IMG/VR virus record: IMGVR_UViG_3300039368_000086
Coordinates: 1 to 13,305 of that record
Strand: one strand, 5' to 3'
DNA length: 13,305 nucleotides
Source of the DNA: a virus
Lineage: Duplodnaviria; Heunggongvirae; Uroviricota; Caudoviricetes
Position 1 is the stretch's first letter. Each line of letters starts with the position of its first letter. The notes below the pieces were generated by a model. The model did no database searches. It saw only the letters and a list, made by a program, of their open reading frames with translations, and had not been told where the DNA came from. Made by a program: the position numbers and the translations under genes. Of this stretch, positions 3,072-13,025 are shown one piece after another.

Positions 3072-3722
3072 ATGAATGAAAATCAGTTAGCTCCTTGTTG
3101 GGAATTTCAACCTTATCTTGCTGAAAACTATGTTCGCCACTTGTTGGCGGAGATCGCTAACGTACTTGAGCAGCTGTACTATCATAAGCACGCATTAGAC
3201 AGCAACTGGTCTGAAGGTGTAAGGGCTTATGATTGGGTCAGAAATCATCTTATTCAAAATGAAGATGCAATTCCTGGCCTTGAGATGATTTCCAAGGGGT
3301 TGGACTATGTAGTTGCTTTAAATAAAGTTCCGCTACAATTTACCAAAGATTGCATTAATAACCCCAAAAAGAAACATCGTCTGCGTCGAAATAAAGTAGA
3401 GTATGAGCAGCTCTCATTGTTTGGTGATGTTGAGGCTGAGCAAGATATTACATGGCGAGTCATAGCTGAGCCTTTTTTATCCGAAGAGGGCGATGGTGAA
3501 TTAGAGTCCACACTGCCTCGTTGGGAGGTAGCTCTTGTTGGATTTAATACTTATGGTGCTCAGATTAGTATAGTTTCTCATCAATCTACAGCATCGATGC
3601 CGCTTATGCCTCTTGATTATAACACACTCCCTGACGAAGCGGAGATTAATAAGGTGCCTCTTCGTCGGCGTACGAAGGATAAAGATTTGGATGTGAGCAG
3701 TGATGGAACATCAGGTGAATAA
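3072..3722 (+). CDS. Hypothetical protein (216 aa), upstream partner of the HTH-peptidase; no family recognised
   Basis: Long ORF in an AT-rich segment, translationally coupled (about 20-nt overlap) to the downstream gene; weak ribosome-binding site. Confidence 0.65.
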   Translation: MNENQLAPCWEFQPYLAENYVRHLLAEIANVLEQLYYHKHALDSNWSEGVRAYDWVRNHLIQNEDAIPGLEMISKGLDYVVALNKVPLQFTKDCINNPKKKHRLRRNKVEYEQLSLFGDVEAEQDITWRVIAEPFLSEEGDGELESTLPRWEVALVGFNTYGAQISIVSHQSTASMPLMPLDYNTLPDEAEINKVPLRRRTKDKDLDVSSDGTSGE

Positions 3723-4806
3723 CTTCACTGAGTATCGGGGTGATAAGCTCAAACTAGCGAGAATGGCTGTTGGGCTTTCTTGTGAAGAGTTAGCCGAAAA
3801 AATTGGCAAGACAAAGCAATTCGTTAGCAAACTGGAGAAGGGGTGCAGGCCATCGGAGCAATGTCTTGAGTTAATATCTTCAGCGCTTATGATTAAGTCC
3901 AGTTTTCTTTTTACTGAACGAAAATACGCTCTGGAAAGTGATGTCTGCCATTTTCGGAGTAAGAAGTCCAGGACTCAAACGCTGACTAATAGTGTATTGG
4001 CCAGGGCTGAGATTCTTAATATTATAATTTCTGCTGTTGAAGGTGAAATCGAATTTCCTGACGTTAACATACCGGAGCACCCAGGGGCTGAATTACTTAC
4101 TCCGAATGATATTGAGCGAGTGGCAGAAGATTGTCGCCGTGCCTGGAATTTAGGTCTTGGCCCTATATCATCAATGGTTAAATTGGCGGAGAGTTTAGGG
4201 GTAATCGTTGCGCATGTTACGGGAGTCGATGATCGTGTTGATGCTTTTACTGTTCACAATAACAGGCCTGTTATCATCAGGAACAATGTTAAAAAAAGCA
4301 TATGTAGATTTCGCTCTGATTTAGGTCATGAATTAGGGCATTTAGTAATGCATGAGGGCATAACGACAGGTGATAAACTTACGGAATCACAAGCCGATCA
4401 CTTTTCGAGCGCCTTATTAGTTCCCAGGTTATCTTTCATTAAAGAATTTCCACGAATACGAGGTAAGCAATTCGACTGGAATGCTCTGGTTGAATTTAAA
4501 CTTAGATGGAAAATCAGCCTTAAAATGTGTATTTATCGAGCCAGCGCATTAGGCTTATTGACCCAGGAACAGGCAAGAACTGGCTATATGCATCTTAATT
4601 CCAGAGGGTATACGAGAGTTGAACCTGGTGATGAACTTTTGCGCCCTGAAGAACCCGGCATGCTGGCCGAGGCGATTGAAATGCTGGATGATGCAACCTG
4701 GCTAAGAATTCTTATGAAAACTGGCTTGAGCCAAGATTTAATTCGTGAGTTGTTCTCCATCAACAGACCTATTACAAATCCAAGAAATATTTTCCAGATT
4801 GTTTGA
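3703..4806 (+). CDS. HTH_XRE DNA-binding domain fused to ImmA/IrrE-family (M78, COG2856) zinc metallopeptidase
   Basis: N-terminal helix-turn-helix signature (LKLARMAVGLSCEELAEKIGKTKQFVSKLEKG); HEXXH zinc-binding motif in DLGHELGHLVMHEG; 367 aa. Confidence 0.85.
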   Translation: MEHQVNNFTEYRGDKLKLARMAVGLSCEELAEKIGKTKQFVSKLEKGCRPSEQCLELISSALMIKSSFLFTERKYALESDVCHFRSKKSRTQTLTNSVLARAEILNIIISAVEGEIEFPDVNIPEHPGAELLTPNDIERVAEDCRRAWNLGLGPISSMVKLAESLGVIVAHVTGVDDRVDAFTVHNNRPVIIRNNVKKSICRFRSDLGHELGHLVMHEGITTGDKLTESQADHFSSALLVPRLSFIKEFPRIRGKQFDWNALVEFKLRWKISLKMCIYRASALGLLTQEQARTGYMHLNSRGYTRVEPGDELLRPEEPGMLAEAIEMLDDATWLRILMKTGLSQDLIRELFSINRPITNPRNIFQIV

Positions 4807-5470: not shown

Positions 5471-6517
5471 GTGCGGGTATTACTTCGACCTGTTCTGGTA
5501 CCGGAACTCGGGCTGGTGATCGTTAAGCCGGGCCGTGAATCCATGCCGGTATTCCACAATACCCGGGTACTGGTGGAGCCGGAACCGAAAAGCATGCGTA
5601 ATCTGCCGTCCGGGGTCGTTCCTGCCGTTCGCCAGCCGCTGGCGGAGGATAAATCATTACTGCCATTTTTCAGCGACGAACGAGTGATTCGTGCTGCTGG
5701 TGGCGCTGGCGCATTGTCTGATTGGTTACTGCGCCATGTTAAATCCTGCCAGTGGCCACACGGCGATTATCACCACAGTGAAACCGTCATTCACCGTTAT
5801 GGTACCGGCGCAATGGTGTTGTGCTGGCACTGCGACAACCAGCTGCGCGACCAGACCTCCGAATCACTCGGGCAACTTGCTCACCAAAACCTGTCTGCAT
5901 GGATGATTGACGTCATACGCCATGCAATGAATGGCTCGCAGGAACGGGAATTATCGCTGGCTGAATTATCCTGGTGGGCGGTCCGCAATCAGGTGGCGGA
6001 CGCGCTACCGGAAGCGGTATTACGTCGTTCGCTGGGGTTGCGTGCGGAAAAAATCCGCTCAATGTACCGTGAAAGCGACATCGTACCGGGAGAGCAGACC
6101 GCCACCAGCATACTGAAGCAGCGCACAAAAAATCTTGCGCCGCTGCCTCACGCCCACCAGCAAAACCCGCCACAGGAAGAGACGGTGGTCAGCATTGCCG
6201 TTGATCCTGAGTCTCCGGAATCTTTCATGAAACGACCTAAACGTCGCCGCTGGGTTAACGAGAAATACACACGCTGGGTGAAGACACAGCCGTGTGCGTG
6301 TTGTGGTAAGCCAGCCGACGATCCCCATCACCTGATTGGTCATGGTCAGGGCGGAATGGGGACAAAATCTCACGATATTTTCACGCTACCGCTGTGTCGG
6401 GAGCATCACAACGAGCTTCATGCGGATCCTCTGGCGTTCGAAGAAAAGCATGGTTCTCAGGTTGATTTAATTTTTCGTTTTCTTGATCACGCCTTTGCAA
6501 CTGGCGTGCTTGGGTAA
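5471..6517 (+). CDS. DUF968-family (YdfU-like) phage protein with C-terminal HNH/zinc-finger-like motif
   Basis: GTG start with GGAGG ribosome-binding site; C-terminal CACCGK...DPHHLIGHGQGG...CREHHNELH motif; 348 aa, close to the size of Qin prophage YdfU; located just upstream of rusA/Q. Confidence 0.75.
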   Translation: MRVLLRPVLVPELGLVIVKPGRESMPVFHNTRVLVEPEPKSMRNLPSGVVPAVRQPLAEDKSLLPFFSDERVIRAAGGAGALSDWLLRHVKSCQWPHGDYHHSETVIHRYGTGAMVLCWHCDNQLRDQTSESLGQLAHQNLSAWMIDVIRHAMNGSQERELSLAELSWWAVRNQVADALPEAVLRRSLGLRAEKIRSMYRESDIVPGEQTATSILKQRTKNLAPLPHAHQQNPPQEETVVSIAVDPESPESFMKRPKRRRWVNEKYTRWVKTQPCACCGKPADDPHHLIGHGQGGMGTKSHDIFTLPLCREHHNELHADPLAFEEKHGSQVDLIFRFLDHAFATGVLG

Positions 6518-6889: not shown

Positions 6890-7575
6890 ATAACCAGTAT
6901 TTACAGTTTGTGCGTGAGCAGCTCATTATCGCCACCGCTGATTTGAGTGGGGCAACAAAAGGTCAGCTTGAAGCCTGGCAGGAGAATGCCATGTTCGATA
7001 CAGGGCGTTACAGGCGTAAAAAAATCCGGTACCGCGATGAAGTGACCGGAAAAATGATAACGCGGGATAATCCACCAATCCCGGGAAAACAATCGCTGGC
7101 GAAGGGGACGTCAATTCCTCTGGTCAGTCAGGTTGCTTTTTCTACATCATCATGGCGGCGGGCTGTTTTGTCTCTTGAAGAACATCATAAAGCCTGGTTG
7201 TTGTGGTGTTACAGCGGAAATACTTGCTGGGAGTATCAGATCGCGATAACGCAGTGGGCATGGACAGAATTTAAGACTCACTCTGGTACCAGGAAAATTG
7301 CAGGGAAGACACAGGAACGCCTGAAAAAATTAATCTGGCTGGCTGCACAGGATGTCAGGAGATGGGTTATAGGACATGATATCTACCAGCAACAGGAGCT
7401 TGCCCGTCTGTGTGGGATTAAGCCTGACAACTGGAGCCACAATTATGTGAGCTACTGGCGTGAAATACTCGACATTTTTATGAACCTCGATACCGAATCT
7501 CTGATTTGCACTGTGAAAAGGAGATCTCAACAAAAAGCGGCATTTTTGCAGCGAGATATTGCAAAAGTCAATTAG
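6886..7575 (+). CDS. Late-gene antitermination protein Q (phage 21/82/Qin-type Q family)
   Basis: ATGA overlap with the rusA stop; 229 aa; immediately followed by a PR'-like promoter and a short-transcript terminator. Family assignment is mainly positional. Confidence 0.7.
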   Translation: MNNQYLQFVREQLIIATADLSGATKGQLEAWQENAMFDTGRYRRKKIRYRDEVTGKMITRDNPPIPGKQSLAKGTSIPLVSQVAFSTSSWRRAVLSLEEHHKAWLLWCYSGNTCWEYQIAITQWAWTEFKTHSGTRKIAGKTQERLKKLIWLAAQDVRRWVIGHDIYQQQELARLCGIKPDNWSHNYVSYWREILDIFMNLDTESLICTVKRRSQQKAAFLQRDIAKVN

Positions 7576-7623: not shown

Positions 7624-7648
7624 ACCCGCTCAAATGTGCGGGTTTTTT
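7624..7648 (+). terminator. tR'-like rho-independent terminator (CCCGC ... GCGGG + T6)
   Basis: 5-bp GC stem, 8-nt loop, TTTTTT tract; position right after Q. Confidence 0.6.
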
Positions 7649-7721
7649 GCTTAACTCTGTGGACCTTTTTATCTGTAGTTGTAATATATGGATATTGTTA
7701 CAATTTAGGTCGGTGAGCTTA

Positions 7722-8486
7722 ATGGAAGAACAGCACGGTAATTACTTTATAAAACGAATTCAGTTGATTGGAAGAGGGGCATTTGGCTTTGTTGAACACG
7801 TTAAGGTTTACAACCTCAATAAAGGTGAATGCGGGGATTATGCTAGAAAGGTTTTAGCACCCGAAAAACCAGAGCTTTTGGCGCAAATAGAGCAGTTTAG
7901 AAGGCGTTTTAAAAGGGAGGTTGTGTATCAATCACATTGCGTACATAGCAATATTGTTCCTATTTATTTGTGCGATTTGTTTGTTGAGAATCCATGGTTC
8001 ATTATGGATAAAGCAGAATGTGATCTTGAGCACGAAATAACGAACAACCTTCTTACAACAGATCAAAAAATTTCAATAGTGAAAATGGTATTAGATGGTG
8101 TAGCTTACATCCATGCCAAAGGCTATTTACACAGAGATATAAAACCCTTTAATGTTTTGCGATTTAGCGACGGAACATACAAGGTGTCTGATTTTGGTCT
8201 GGTAAAAGATACGAATCCCGAAGGGGATACCACTAAATTGACCGAGATCGGTACCCGTATGGGAAGTACAAGATATATGGCTCCCGAGATTTTATATAAT
8301 GCAGAGTATTCAGTTAAGACTGATGTTTATGCTGTGGGACGGTTAATTGAAGACTTAAATTTAGATGATAAAAAAATAAAGCCTATCATAGCTAAGTGCA
8401 CAAGGATGGATAAAGATGATAGATATCAGACAATAGATGATGTGGCGTTTGATTTTGCGCATTCTTTTTTAAGGAGTGAGTCATGA
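7722..8486 (+). CDS. Hanks-type (eukaryotic-like) Ser/Thr protein kinase, minimal kinase domain only (254 aa)
   Basis: Full motif set: glycine loop IGRGAFGFV, ARK lysine, catalytic loop HRDIKPFN, DFG (VSDFGLVK), APE (YMAPE), DVYAVG; GGTGAG ribosome-binding site before ATG 7722. Confidence 0.85.
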   Translation: MEEQHGNYFIKRIQLIGRGAFGFVEHVKVYNLNKGECGDYARKVLAPEKPELLAQIEQFRRRFKREVVYQSHCVHSNIVPIYLCDLFVENPWFIMDKAECDLEHEITNNLLTTDQKISIVKMVLDGVAYIHAKGYLHRDIKPFNVLRFSDGTYKVSDFGLVKDTNPEGDTTKLTEIGTRMGSTRYMAPEILYNAEYSVKTDVYAVGRLIEDLNLDDKKIKPIIAKCTRMDKDDRYQTIDDVAFDFAHSFLRSES

Positions 8487-9226
8487 TTCAGCTGATAGCG
8501 ACTTCATCATTCTCGTATCCAAAAGAACCAGGTAGGGTCAACGAAGATTCATTGCTTCCTCCAAAAATTGTAGGAGACGGCATCTTATTTGCCGTAGCTG
8601 ATGGTGTAGGTTCATACTCTGGTGCCAGTTATGCTTCATCCATGGCAATCGCTGAACTTTCAGCATTGACAAGTTTATCTTTTGATGCAGTTCCGAATGT
8701 ATTTGCTGAAGTTAAGCGAAAAGTTATGTCGTTAGCTGAAGTTAATGATGAGTTCGATAAAGCTGCTACTACACTTACCTTTTGTTATGTTTGTGATAGC
8801 GGAATTATTATTGGTCATATTGGTGATTGTCGCTTGTATTGCATTGGAGAAAAGAAAGCATATCAATTGACGAAGGACGATACCAGACATCAGATGTTAA
8901 TTGATCAGAATATTTTTAAACCCAGAGATTTGAAGAATAAACCGGGAAAAAATATCTTAACGACTGCCATAGCCTCAAATGTTGATATGGAATACGACTG
9001 TGATTTTATCCCGTGGAAAGATTTGCCTGGTATTAACGGGTTGTATCATCTGTGTATCATGTCTGATGGAGTTCATAACGTTTGGGAAAAACGCCCCAGA
9101 TTTACATCAAATACTATGAGTAATAGTCAGAAGTTTTCTAATGGTATTTTGCGTCGTATAGAGAGAGCCGGACCTGATGATGACTTTTCTTTAGTAAGTA
9201 TAATGGTGCGTGTGACGTCAGATTAG
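8483..9226 (+). CDS. PP2C-family (PPM) Ser/Thr protein phosphatase (247 aa)
   Basis: Motifs RVNEDS, FAVADGVGS, IGDCRLY, MSDGVHN, GPDDDFSLV; AAGGAG ribosome-binding site; ATGA overlap with the kinase stop (translational coupling). Confidence 0.8.
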   Translation: MIQLIATSSFSYPKEPGRVNEDSLLPPKIVGDGILFAVADGVGSYSGASYASSMAIAELSALTSLSFDAVPNVFAEVKRKVMSLAEVNDEFDKAATTLTFCYVCDSGIIIGHIGDCRLYCIGEKKAYQLTKDDTRHQMLIDQNIFKPRDLKNKPGKNILTTAIASNVDMEYDCDFIPWKDLPGINGLYHLCIMSDGVHNVWEKRPRFTSNTMSNSQKFSNGILRRIERAGPDDDFSLVSIMVRVTSD

Positions 9227-9336: not shown

Positions 9337-9663
9337 GTGCAGTACGTTAAACACGCTTGTGGTTGTGAATGCCGACTGCGGCGGTATTTTGGCGTGACAG
9401 CGCAGGTGCCGTATACCGATGTCTGGACGCATAAACCGGTGCAGTTCTATCCCGGGAAACATCCGTGCGAAAAACCGGCAGAAATGCTGCAGCAGATAAT
9501 CAGCGCAAGCAGTCGTCCGGGAGACCTGGTTGCAGATTTTTTTATGGGCTCAGGTTCAACGGTAAAAGCGGCACTGGCGCTCGGGCGTCGTGCGATTGGC
9601 GTTGAACTGGAGACCGGACGTTTTGAGCAGACAGTCAGGGAAGTTCAGGATTTAATCGTTTGA
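9337..9663 (+). pseudogene. C-terminal fragment of an N6-adenine/N4-cytosine DNA methyltransferase (5'-truncated)
   Basis: Contains HPCEKP (H-P-x-x-K-P) and the FFMGSGST AdoMet-binding motif, but no DPPY catalytic motif and only a GTG start abutting a terminator. Confidence 0.55.
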
Positions 9664-9712: not shown

Positions 9713-9788
9713 GGCCCTTTAGCTCAGTGGTGAGAGCGAGCGACTCATAATCGCCAGGTCGCTGGTTCAAATCCAGCAAGGGCCACCA
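9713..9788 (+). tRNA. ileZ: tRNA-Ile2 (anticodon CAU, lysidine type; ileZ-like)
   Basis: Hand-folded cloverleaf: acceptor GGCCCTT/AAGGGCC, D-stem GCTC/GAGC, anticodon loop CTCATAA, T-arm GCTGG-TTCAAAT-CCAGC, 3' ACCA; close to E. coli ileX. Confidence 0.8.
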
Positions 9789-9795
9789 TCACATA

Positions 9796-9872
9796 CCGCC
9801 ATTAGCTCATCAGGAAAGAGCGCCAGCCTTCGAAGCTGGTTGCGCGGAGTTCGGGTCCCCGAAGGCGGTCCA
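9796..9872 (+). tRNA. argN: tRNA-Arg-like (anticodon UCG as read; argN-like) with one mismatch each in acceptor and T stems
   Basis: Anticodon stem CCAGC/GCTGG with loop CTTCGAA; T-loop TTCGGGT; 3' TCCA; imperfect stems make functionality uncertain. Confidence 0.55.
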
Positions 9873-9885
9873 TTATCTGTATCCT

Positions 9886-9962
9886 GCGTTGTTAGCTCAG
9901 CCGGACAGAGCAATTGCCTTCTAAGCAATCGGTCACTGGTTCGAATCCAGTACAACGCGCCA
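9886..9962 (+). tRNA. argO: tRNA-Arg (anticodon UCU, reads AGA; argO/argU-like)
   Basis: Acceptor GCGTTGT/ACAACGC, anticodon loop CTTCTAA, T-arm ACTGG-TTCGAAT-CCAGT, 3' GCCA. Confidence 0.85.
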
Positions 9963-10249: not shown

Positions 10250-10283
10250 TCCTTATGGACTTTGTTGTTTTAGTCCATAAGGA
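10250..10283. repeat. Perfect 12-bp inverted repeat (TCCTTATGGACT ... AGTCCATAAGGA) with 10-nt loop
   Basis: Every base pair checked by hand; no U-tract on either strand; overlaps the stop codon of the minus-strand ORF. Confidence 0.7.
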
Positions 10284-10588
10284 CATATTTGCAGAGTGCA
10301 ACGGTTATTAAAGCATTCATTCAATACGTTATCTGTATTTGTAGGGCATTCCTGGCTGTTTTTGATTAAATTCCAGAATGTTTTATTGAATGGTACTACG
10401 TTGTAAATGGTTACAGGTAGCACTTTGTTATTGAGCATGATACCTGTGTGAGTCAGTGTAAATATACTTTCAGGAGGTAAGAAAGCATCCGATTGATACC
10501 AGATTATTAATTTTACTTTACTCCATATGACTGAAAAAGATATTCCGCATGATGGCTGGATAACTGTATCAATCACAATCCACTTCAT
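10253..10588 (-). CDS. Hypothetical Cys/Trp-rich protein (111 aa) in an AT-rich segment; only minus-strand gene candidate in the window
   Basis: ORF with AGGAA 7 nt upstream of its ATG on the minus strand; AT-rich (foreign-looking) context; no recognised motif; could be spurious. Confidence 0.3.
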
Positions 10589-10848
10589 TTAGTTTCCTTG
10601 TTTATGCCTTGCTGGTGATGTTCTGAAAAGTATAAATGATATTTTTGAATGTAAACCATAGAGCAGAATTATTTTTATGATGTTGTTTATTGTTTATTTA
10701 AATGCAGGGTGGTTTATATCTCGTCTTGTAGTTTATCCATGCATATCTGCTTGATAATCAAGTTTTTATTTAAGGTATGGTTTTGTGTTTTTTCTGTATT
10801 ACATGTCAGGTATTTTAAAGAATTATTTTTCAGATGGTGGAAAGAACC

Positions 10849-11037
10849 ATGGCATTTAAACACTATGATGTTGTCAGGGCGGCGGCGCCGTCAGATCTTG
10901 CGGAAAAGCTGACACATAAACTGAAAGAGGGCTGGCAGCCGTTTGGTAGTCCGGTGGCCATAACCCCTTATACCCTGATGCAGGCGATTGCAGCAGAAGG
11001 TGATGTGGTGGTCAGTGGTGCAACTGAGCCGGAGTGA
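10849..11037 (+). CDS. Small conserved-looking late-region protein (62 aa; alternative start 10834)
   Basis: ORF with GGTGG/GAAAGA upstream; located just before the lysis cassette, where lambdoid prophages often carry a small conserved gene. Confidence 0.45.
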   Translation: MAFKHYDVVRAAAPSDLAEKLTHKLKEGWQPFGSPVAITPYTLMQAIAAEGDVVVSGATEPE

Positions 11038-11280
11038 TACTACGTCATCGTACTGGCCCGGCATTCCAGGCCATAAAAGACGGTCTGGCAGTGGGACTAA
11101 ATGCACTGACGCTGACGGATATTACCAAAAATGCAACGTATGGCGTTGAGATAGAAAGTCTGGTGCTGGAGATAAATGCACCGGCATCATCATAAAAAGT
11201 GAGCCAGTCAAATGGAAGGTATCGTTAAACTCACCGGTAGTGTCAGTGGGTCGTCTGAGACGCCTGCATGAGTTATCAGA

Positions 11281-11310
11281 GCCATCAGTACTTAACTGGT
11301 GGCTTTTTTA
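11281..11310 (+). terminator. Terminator-like hairpin upstream of the holin (GCCATCAG-TACTTAA-CTGGTGGC + TTTTTTATT)
   Basis: 8-bp stem with one G-U pair followed by a T-tract. Confidence 0.4.
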
Positions 11311-11344: not shown

Positions 11345-11560
11345 ATGTACCAGATGGAAAAAATCACAACAGGTGTGTCATACACCACGTCAGCGGTGGG
11401 AACGGGCTACTGGTTCCTGCAGTTGCTGGACAGGGTTTCCCCGTCTCAGTGGGCGGCAATAGGCGTGCTGGGGAGTCTGCTGTTTGGGCTGCTGACATAT
11501 CTGACTAACCTGTATTTCAAAATCAAAGAGGACCGGCGTAAGGCGGCGCGGGGAGAGTAA
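11345..11560 (+). CDS. Phage-21-type class II holin (pinholin, S21/EssD family) with dual-start motif (MYQM)
   Basis: Translation ...[51 protein letters not shown] matches S21/EssD as I recall them; GGGAGACGGGG ribosome-binding site. Confidence 0.85.
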
Positions 11561-11564
11561 AGTG

Positions 11565-12455
11565 ATGAATAAAAAATATGAACTGGTTGTTAAGGGGATA
11601 AATAATTACGGGGATAAGGTTACTGTTACTGTGAAGCCGGAAGGTGACGGGCAAGCGTCGCTGTTGTTGCCAGATGTGGCGATTAGTCTTGACCGTACTG
11701 AAGGTGCCACGCTGGAGTTTTACGAAGCTGAGGCGAAAAAGCAGGCGAAGCAGTTTTTCATGGATGTTGCTGCCGGGTTATGTGAAGGGGATGGTCCGTT
11801 GCCGGAAAAGCGCCCCGTAATTTTAGAGGCGCAGGATGTGTTGATAACCTACAAAGGAAAGCTACCGGGAAGAATTACTTGTTCTCTGAAGATGCCGCCG
11901 TCAACACTGCGGTCAGAAAAAGATGATGTTGAATCACGTATTGAAAAACTGGAGAGCTACGTCGTTGAGCTGAATAAGAAATGGTCGATATTGGTGCCTT
12001 CTGGCGATGAAAAGCAGTTTGCTGCGTTTGACGATTATTGTCGGAAAGTGATGAGCAGAAATCTCGCAGAGTGTTTCAGTATTCATAATGATAATTTCAG
12101 TGACCCGGAATGGGAGTGTAACCGGCCATCCTTTGTTGTATCCGGTGATGCTGGGAAAATAACCATCTCAGAAAATGGGAAAGTAACACCTCCATCGCAC
12201 CAGCACAGTGAGGAGCTCATTGAATTTGCCATTGATTACCTGAAGAACAATAAAAAGCAGGGGCTGATGAAGCGCGTTGGCCGTTGCATGGGATATCTGC
12301 AGGTAGCTGCTGAGATTGAAGCGCTGGCCAGTGGTGCTGATAAGGATGCAATTGTGCGGGAGGCTCTTCTTCGTGATTTTAATACTCCACCCTTTAAAAA
12401 AGTGCCGGCTTACTGGCTTCATCCGGGGCTGACTTATCTTAAAGTGCGTATTTAG
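11565..12455 (+). CDS. Hypothetical protein (296 aa) inserted between holin and endolysin; no family recognised
   Basis: ATG at 11565 lies 7 nt after GGGAGAG, which overlaps the holin stop; long ORF with protein-like composition; no signal peptide or TM segment seen. Confidence 0.7.
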   Translation: MNKKYELVVKGINNYGDKVTVTVKPEGDGQASLLLPDVAISLDRTEGATLEFYEAEAKKQAKQFFMDVAAGLCEGDGPLPEKRPVILEAQDVLITYKGKLPGRITCSLKMPPSTLRSEKDDVESRIEKLESYVVELNKKWSILVPSGDEKQFAAFDDYCRKVMSRNLAECFSIHNDNFSDPEWECNRPSFVVSGDAGKITISENGKVTPPSHQHSEELIEFAIDYLKNNKKQGLMKRVGRCMGYLQVAAEIEALASGADKDAIVREALLRDFNTPPFKKVPAYWLHPGLTYLKVRI

Positions 12456-12491
12456 TGGGCCAGGGACAGCGGCTGAATATTTAATATATCC

Positions 12492-13025
12492 ATGAACACC
12501 AAAATCAAATACGGCCTGTCGGCTGCCGTTCTGGCGCTGATTGCCGCTGGTGCGCCTGCGCCTGACATTCTCGACCAGTTTCTGGATGAAAAGGAAGGCA
12601 AGCACACCACAGCATACCGTGATGGTGCGGGTATCTGGACCATCTGCCGAGGTGCCATCATGGTGGATGGTAAGCCTGTGATTCCTGGCATGAAGCTGTC
12701 GAAGGAAAAATGCGACTGGGTTAACACTATCGAACGGGATAAGGCGCTGGCGTGGGTGGAGAAAAACATCAGAGTGCCACTGACCGAACCCCAGAAAGCG
12801 GGGATCGCGTCATTCTGTCCGTACAACATTGGTCCCGGTAAGTGTTTCCCGTCGACGTTTTACAGACGAATTAATGCTGGTGATCGAAAAGGTGCCTGCG
12901 AAGCGATTCGCTGGTGGATTAAGGACGGTGGCAGAGACTGCCGTATTCGTTCAAACAACTGTTACGGTCAAGTATCCCGTCGTGACCAGGAGAGCGCGCT
13001 GGCGTGCTGGGGTATCGACAGATAA
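12492..13025 (+). CDS. SAR-endolysin (phage-21 R-type lysozyme, T4-lysozyme/GH24 fold)
   Basis: N-terminal signal-arrest-release-like segment GLSAAVLALIAAGAPAP; catalytic-region pattern E...D...T (EKEGKHTTAYRDGAGIWTICRG) similar to R21/P1 Lyz. Confidence 0.8.
   Translation: MNTKIKYGLSAAVLALIAAGAPAPDILDQFLDEKEGKHTTAYRDGAGIWTICRGAIMVDGKPVIPGMKLSKEKCDWVNTIERDKALAWVEKNIRVPLTEPQKAGIASFCPYNIGPGKCFPSTFYRRINAGDRKGACEAIRWWIKDGGRDCRIRSNNCYGQVSRRDQESALACWGIDR

Follow-up and report, generated by a model that had tools for sequence, protein, structure and literature searches.

A two-domain YdfR-family gene between the S21-type holin and SAR-type lysozyme genes of a lambdoid prophage, and its possible role as a late accessory protein

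The window analyzed here, a stretch of 13,305 nucleotides from a virus of the class Caudoviricetes (IMG/VR record IMGVR_UViG_3300039368_000086), carries between its holin and lysozyme genes an open reading frame at 11565..12455 on the + strand, which encodes 296 amino acids from an ATG (stop codon included in the coordinates). We found that this ORF is almost certainly an intact and full-length YdfR/DUF1327 family member (PHROG 1085) with a two-domain anatomy. The family is an accessory late-operon gene of lambdoid prophages in Escherichia, Shigella, and Salmonella, and the ORF is not a new element, since the family and its place in the cassette had both been catalogued before. What our analysis adds is a two-domain layout that appears to be ancestral, a conserved C-terminal domain (C-domain) outside any Pfam model, the takeover of the endolysin's coupled start, and a link to a published study on RNase E. 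Our best overall explanation, to which we give slightly less than an even chance, is that the ORF encodes a full-length YdfR-family late accessory protein that would act via RNase E.

Profile searches place the ORF in this family. Residues 1-100 match Pfam DUF1327 (PF07041) with an E value of 4e-40 and 136.4 bits against a cutoff of 25, and PHROG 1085 is matched end to end (E 2.2e-188, protein residues 1-296 on profile positions 1-296 of 296); the shorter PHROGs 406, 2091, 2735, 36381, and 26186, all labeled 'unknown function', match fragments of the protein. RefSeq names the ORF 'YdfR family protein', and an NCBIfam search with it gave no informative match. The sequence-only reading had described an unknown ORF with no recognizable motif; the DUF1327 match overturns the second part of that description, while of the first part it stands that no function is attached to the family, although the family itself is known. 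In PADLOC-DB 2.0, no defense family was matched at E ≤ 0.01 by the ORF or by two Salmonella homologues. PDB sequence profiles queried with full-length and C-domain alignments returned nothing significant, and Foldseek searches against PDB and BFVD found no informative fold relative and no recognizable enzymatic or toxin fold. A toxin or defense gene, one of the lysis-coupled roles suggested earlier, was rejected on the grounds that no model matches and that the K-12 homologue is non-toxic on overexpression.

The ORF behaves as a real gene rather than a chance frame, because its dN/dS against seven E. coli homologues is low (0.28-0.51 overall, and 0.15-0.28 for the C-domain) and its sequence is kept in other genomes. 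All 891 bp are 100% identical in both of the other E. coli genomes that were compared base by base, and 331 records match the ORF DNA at 99% or more. The frame ends with a TAG at 12453-12455, and a GTG one codon upstream of the ATG is an alternative start, with which the ORF is listed as 11562..12455 (297 aa). RefSeq labels the first 336 nt of the gene as 'YdfR family protein, incomplete, missing C-terminus' in NZ_CP069528 (locus L001, 12366-12701) and NZ_CP015159 (locus L023, 1201-1536), and leaves the remaining 555 nt unannotated, yet in both genomes the 296-codon frame is intact and 100% identical to the window. We attribute this partial-pseudogene label to comparison of the long form with short reference proteins. 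A frameshift behind the 'incomplete' label in NZ_CP069528 was ruled out, as the ORF there is identical and intact; the 1-nt indel is located downstream, past the lysozyme gene. The label, together with the many truncated copies in E. coli, could be taken to mean that the ORF is decaying or non-functional. We consider this very improbable, given the uninterrupted and identical frame in the very genomes that bear the label, the low dN/dS of the C-domain (0.15-0.32), and the residues that are invariant between Escherichia and Salmonella. The hidden frameshifts or stops that had been considered as a reason to doubt translation of the ORF were thus not found.

An AlphaFold2 model built on a 65-sequence alignment, of moderate confidence overall (mean pLDDT 62), divides the protein into modules, of which residues 1-72 and 190-272 are the confident parts. 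The N-terminal DUF1327 module (aa 1-75; 11565..11789, + strand) is predicted to form three β-strands and a long helix (pLDDT about 65-85), and alignments show that it occurs as two diverged allele types. It is followed by a linker that is predicted to be disordered (aa 76-120; 11790..11924, + strand; pLDDT 27-37; aa 73-120 as the disordered stretch of the model) and is variable among homologues, with a dN/dS of 0.4-1.3 over aa 76-185. Next comes a predicted helical hairpin or coiled-coil-like segment (aa 121-176; 11925..12092, + strand), with helices at 122-146 and 149-176 (pLDDT about 57-64), which in the alignments carries variable, lineage-specific insertions. The core of the C-domain (aa 190-272; 12132..12380, + strand) is modeled as a small β-sheet and three helices with a pLDDT of 73-91. 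In the alignment of 65 Escherichia and Salmonella sequences, the C-domain residues H214, G239, G243, L245, Q246, and A249 are invariant. The Pfam scan matched DUF1327 only, which leaves a conserved C-domain of about 110 aa without any Pfam model. The protein ends in a conserved tail (aa 273-296; 12381..12452, + strand) with the pattern PPFK..P..W..PG..YL..R, in which P276 and K278 are invariant and W284, P287, G288, Y291, and L292 nearly so. The tail is modeled poorly (pLDDT 43-52) and is possibly a peptide that folds upon partner binding. E. coli also has the C-terminal part without the N-domain, in proteins of 185-213 aa encoded directly after the holin gene.

Both domains are under purifying selection, with a dN/dS of 0.15-0.32 in the C-domain, as given above, and of 0.17-0.6 in the N-domain for pairs diverged enough at synonymous sites. 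Between the window and locus L013, dS is 1.03 in the N-domain but 0.026 in the C-domain, a contrast that shows recombination between modules.

A search of 1.84 billion representative proteins returned only 74 relatives, and a scan of GTDB species-representative genomes with the C-domain motif found only three Escherichia/Shigella loci. The distant relatives, at 27-45% identity, are Salmonella enterica prophage proteins that align over both domains and have the same three-part architecture; one of them matches PHROG 1085 at E 1e-25. The short proteins diverge from the long form at different points. K-12 ydfR is homologous to it only up to about codon 69 and then continues into unrelated sequence, and the genes of H-19B and ML35 are homologous up to codon 112, within the linker, with unrelated sequence beyond. 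Because the distant Salmonella homologues have the same two-domain layout, the long form is most simply read as ancestral, and the simplest account of the short YdfR proteins, such as those of K-12 and H-19B, is that they derive from it by deletion or replacement at the 3' end, a direction that we infer from only two genera. The Salmonella homologues also allowed us to rule out an accidental fusion of two genes, as they share the fused architecture.

In E. coli as well as in Salmonella, YdfR-family genes often have a small minus-strand ORF of 86-106 aa that abuts or overlaps their 3' end. We recorded such ORFs at loci L003 (3084-3344), L004 (3145-3459), L021 (13911-14183), L009 (4881-5141), L011 (4849-5145), L025 (4271-4591), and L026 (4226-4519), and they belong to several PHROGs of unknown function (2572, 2411, 1853, and weakly 19753). 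The window has no such ORF, and the gap between its YdfR-family ORF and the lysozyme gene is only 36 nt.

The family is common in E. coli, mostly in shortened form. Of 5426 complete E. coli genomes, 3084 (57%) contain its DNA, at 6939 places in total, and 496 have at least 80% of the long form. N-domain DNA occurs at 5833 places in 2681 genomes and C-domain DNA at 952 places in 777 genomes, such that the C-domain has been lost from most E. coli copies. Among GenBank phage records, 434 have an S21-type holin and 106 have a YdfR-family match, three of the 106 covering at least 80% of the long form. We also collected 80 IMG/VR loci with holins 97-100% identical to that of the window, 71 of which have a downstream lysozyme gene within reach. 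The slot between the two genes is occupied in 59 of these 71 cassettes (nine with the exact spacing of the window), and in the other 12 the lysozyme gene follows the holin by 4 nt or less. Although the sample is biased toward the holin allele of the window itself, cassettes with this holin type have the slot occupied as a rule.

The same arrangement is found in well-known prophages. In the K-12 Qin prophage, the order is essQ (holin), ydfR, rrrQ (lysozyme), and rzpQ/rzoQ, and the holin-ORF-lysozyme layout recurs at loci L003-L005, L013-L019, and L021, which are all of the E. coli variants that were looked up. In the classic Stx1 phage H-19B (AF034975; locus L020, 2218-2565), the 400-nt gap between S and R holds an unannotated YdfR-family ORF of 114/115 aa. 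The earlier view of the ORF as an exceptional insert between two genes that normally adjoin is therefore not supported, given these occurrences, from K-12 Qin and H-19B to 57% of E. coli genomes and 59 of 71 cassettes. The gene is a common and normal occupant of its position, but it is not a characterized one. On the other hand, Stx2 phage II has a holin 100% identical to that of the window with the endolysin gene directly after it. The ORF is dispensable for the lysis machinery itself, since a holin of identical sequence can have the endolysin gene right behind it.

The flanking genes are as the sequence-only reading described them, with the ORF starting 4 nt after an S21-type holin gene and ending 36 nt before a SAR-type lysozyme gene. 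The holin (11345..11560, + strand; 71 aa) is a class II holin of the pinholin type, with a match to Phage_holin_2_1 (PF04971, E 7e-33) and to PHROG holin families, a MYQMEK dual start, and the RefSeq name 'class II holin family protein'. The lysozyme (12492..13025, + strand; 177 aa) is RrrQ-like, matches PF00959 at E 6e-23, and is named 'rrrQ: lysozyme' in RefSeq. Its hydrophobic N-terminus, rich in Ala, Gly, and Leu, and its E35-X8-D44-X5-T50 triad are consistent with a SAR endolysin.

The ORF takes over the start context that otherwise serves the endolysin gene. The Shine-Dalgarno-like sequence GGGGAGAG lies at 11550-11557 (+ strand), within the last holin codons, where a ribosome-binding site overlapping the holin end had been pointed out, and is followed by TAA, a 4-nt spacer, and the ATG of the ORF. 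In an alignment covering the window, Stx2 phage II, K-12, and L013, the junction GGGGAGAGTAA plus 4 nt and ATG is identical whether the ORF or the endolysin gene follows the holin. The endolysin gene of the window is instead preceded by an A/T-rich spacer of 36 nt (12456..12491, + strand) that ends in …TTAATATATCC ATG and has no evident Shine-Dalgarno sequence; the part of the spacer adjoining the endolysin start codon is conserved among ORF-carrying cassettes. Because the ORF takes the coupled start and leaves the endolysin behind an A/T-rich stretch with no obvious Shine-Dalgarno sequence, its insertion may change endolysin translation.

These junctions bear on whether the ORF product is a cytoplasmic lysis regulator that tunes pinholin triggering or the supply of SAR endolysin, either by protein contact or by taking the endolysin's coupled start, with the endolysin then translated from a weak A/T-rich leader that lacks a Shine-Dalgarno sequence. 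Besides the captured start context, this explanation can draw on the constant position of the gene, which in E. coli always lies between an S21-type holin and a lysozyme and in Salmonella always adjoins the lysis cassette. We nevertheless consider it quite unlikely. As the sequence-only reading had stated, the product has no transmembrane segment: its highest Kyte-Doolittle mean is 0.75-0.85, compared to 1.8-2.0 for the lysozyme N-terminus and the holin. It has no periplasmic segment either, and is predicted to be a soluble cytoplasmic protein. Holins identical to that of the window work with the endolysin directly downstream, and the C-domain is missing from most E. coli copies. In Salmonella, the homologue lies just upstream of the holin in all five contexts examined, mostly with a small opposite-strand ORF in between, and these contexts adjoin three unrelated Pfam holin families (2_1, 2_3, and 3_1); in one cassette, the holin is of the lambda-S type and the endolysin has no recorded PF00959 hit. 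Because the Salmonella homologues adjoin three different holin families, a holin-specific lysis role is weakened, whereas the late cassette position on which the original lysis-regulator idea was built holds.

The ORF should be made late together with the lysis genes, as had been expected, because its start lies 4 nt behind the holin gene and it lacks a promoter-like site of its own. A consensus-based scan found no promoter-like site on the + strand from position 9200 to the end of the window, and the same kind of scan found no terminator of its own clearly flanking the ORF. It did find a terminator-like hairpin at 11278..11306 (+ strand), a 12-pair stem followed by TTTATTG, some 40 nt before the holin gene begins. 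Polymerase modified by Q is probably needed to transcribe the cassette, and because no + strand promoter-like site was found and terminator-like hairpins precede the holin, expression of the ORF should depend on the Q-dependent late transcript.

Another reading is generic late-operon cargo unrelated to RNase E: an anti-defense factor or a host-takeover factor aimed at something else, or a protein set free on lysis like the toxin and esterase cargo nearby. The base composition of the ORF fits such cargo, with a GC3 of 0.465 compared to 0.68 in the holin gene and 0.59 in the lysozyme gene, as do its presence/absence polymorphism and the mosaic domain alleles of the pair compared above (dS 1.03 and 0.026). 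In related phages, moreover, the region from Q to the lysis genes bears a NanS-type esterase, an ArtA-like toxin, HicAB, and ParE. Against this, the ORF has no PADLOC defense match, no recognizable enzymatic or toxin fold, and no promoter-like site of its own, and the family's sole experimental datum points to RNase E. We regard generic cargo as somewhat unlikely.

Other genes of the window deserve mention in their own right. In the prophage early region, the overlapping genes at 3072-3722 and 3700-4806 (both + strand) match the PADLOC models RmrT (E 5e-25) and RmrA (E 6e-105), the latter an HTH and ImmA/IrrE-like protein, and form a candidate toxin-antitoxin or defense pair. Just downstream of the Q antiterminator gene, a Ser/Thr protein kinase gene (7647-8486, + strand) matches the PADLOC models mad6, PD-T4-6, and Stk2 and is overlapped by a PP2C phosphatase gene (8483-9226, + strand), the two being a defense-like pair of cargo genes within the late operon. 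The interval from Q to the lysis genes also includes three tRNA genes (9713-9962, + strand), as is typical of Stx-like lambdoid prophages. One has a CAT anticodon (Met according to ARAGORN, annotated as tRNA-Ile in relatives in RefSeq), and the others are Arg-TCG and Arg-TCT; just upstream of the three, at 9337-9663, is a truncated ORF for a DNA methyltransferase. An opposite-strand gene within the late region (10253-10588, - strand) encodes IraM, an anti-adapter protein that regulates RpoS stability, according to identical RefSeq loci. A DUF1737 ORF (10834-11037, + strand), called incomplete by RefSeq, and the ORF overlapping it (11034-11195, + strand) match positions 1-58 and 582-632 of the 634 positions of phrog_143 and are probably what is left of a larger gene after an internal deletion. 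At a related locus, a Salmonella diarizonae prophage (L026, 1710-2519) has, in the cargo region of its late operon, a gene for an ADP-ribosyltransferase like pertussis toxin S1 and ArtA, which lies roughly 1 kb upstream of the gene for the YdfR-family homologue.

The only experimental lead on the function of the YdfR/DUF1327 family comes from a study in which K-12 YdfR was recovered from a two-hybrid library screen with RNase G, the paralogue of RNase E, as bait (RNA Biology 2026, PMC13232886). In that work, the two-hybrid signals of YdfR were stronger when the N-terminal half of RNase E was the partner, YdfR pulled down Rne 1-597/598, residues 1-72 of YdfR sufficed for the interaction, and RNA co-purified; overexpression changed few transcripts and left growth unaffected (PMC13232886). 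The window protein is 47% identical to K-12 YdfR over aa 1-74, the reported RNase E-interacting region. Elsewhere in the literature, the gene is absent from the main text of the envelope-screen paper cited for ydfR (PMC3879167), and further papers naming ydfR mention it only within lists.

The likeliest mechanism, by analogy with K-12 YdfR, would have the ORF protein act on host RNA metabolism from the cytoplasm at a late stage of infection. Its N-terminal module would attach to the N-terminal, catalytic half of RNase E, in line with what was reported for the K-12 protein, and the conserved C-domain and tail would supply an effector or partner-binding activity that the truncated K-12 protein is missing. 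With the lead coming from one paper on a homologue of 47% identity, we treat an RNase E mechanism for the ORF protein as possible and on the doubtful side. A more specific version, in which the full-length form is a late RNase E modulator whose N-module docks while its C-domain and tail recruit or block a second partner such that RNA decay is reprogrammed, seems to us unlikely. The linkage to lysis genes, which is tight and repeated in two genera, could still reflect a lysis-related role.

If the full-length protein does act via RNase E, it would represent a previously unrecognized class of RNase E modulators, present in some form in more than half of E. coli genomes. The family is among the commonest uncharacterized prophage genes in E. 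coli, and the sole functional work used the K-12 protein, which apparently lacks the best-conserved domain and, in all, two thirds of the ancestral protein. We therefore advise use of the full-length gene in work on RNase E or on lysis timing in Stx1/H-19B-type phages, and we point out that the intact long form carries the RefSeq partial-pseudogene label in at least two genomes.

The closest point of comparison is YdfR of the K-12 Qin prophage (P76160), which shares with the ORF a homologous N-module, the slot between an S21-type holin and an RrrQ-type lysozyme, and the 4-nt spacing after the holin stop. Unlike the ORF product, K-12 YdfR has only 103 aa and is without the linker, the helical hairpin, and the conserved C-domain, and the ydfR stop overlaps the rrrQ start, whereas the ORF stops 36 nt upstream of its lysozyme gene. 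The K-12-type N-domain allele also occurs fused to a nearly identical C-domain, in protein P0022. The Salmonella enterica prophage proteins of 250-320 aa (for example P0199, P0200, and P0196) resemble the ORF product in their three-part architecture, their invariant C-domain residues, and their late-operon position beside the lysis cassette. They differ in an N-domain that falls below the Pfam threshold (P0143, E 0.004), in a gene position ahead of the holin instead of between it and the endolysin, and, for some of them, in a C-terminal extension.

Phage proteins that act on RNase E include T4 Srd, T7 gp0.7, and phiKZ Dip. The ORF product would likewise be a phage-encoded RNase E binder only if the K-12 result transfers to it, and it differs from these proteins in coming from a temperate phage and in its expected late expression; searches of PDB and of viral models found no sequence or fold likeness to Srd, gp0.7, or Dip. 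Accessory lysis regulators, on the other hand, include the S21-71 antiholin, T4 RI, and P1 LydB. The Mu releasin gp25 is a further accessory lysis regulator (PMC9239132). In contrast to antiholins and membrane lysis regulators, the ORF product has no membrane or periplasmic segment, is not tied to one holin family, and is missing beside identical holins, but like the accessory lysis regulators it is encoded within or next to a holin-endolysin cassette of the SAR-endolysin type.
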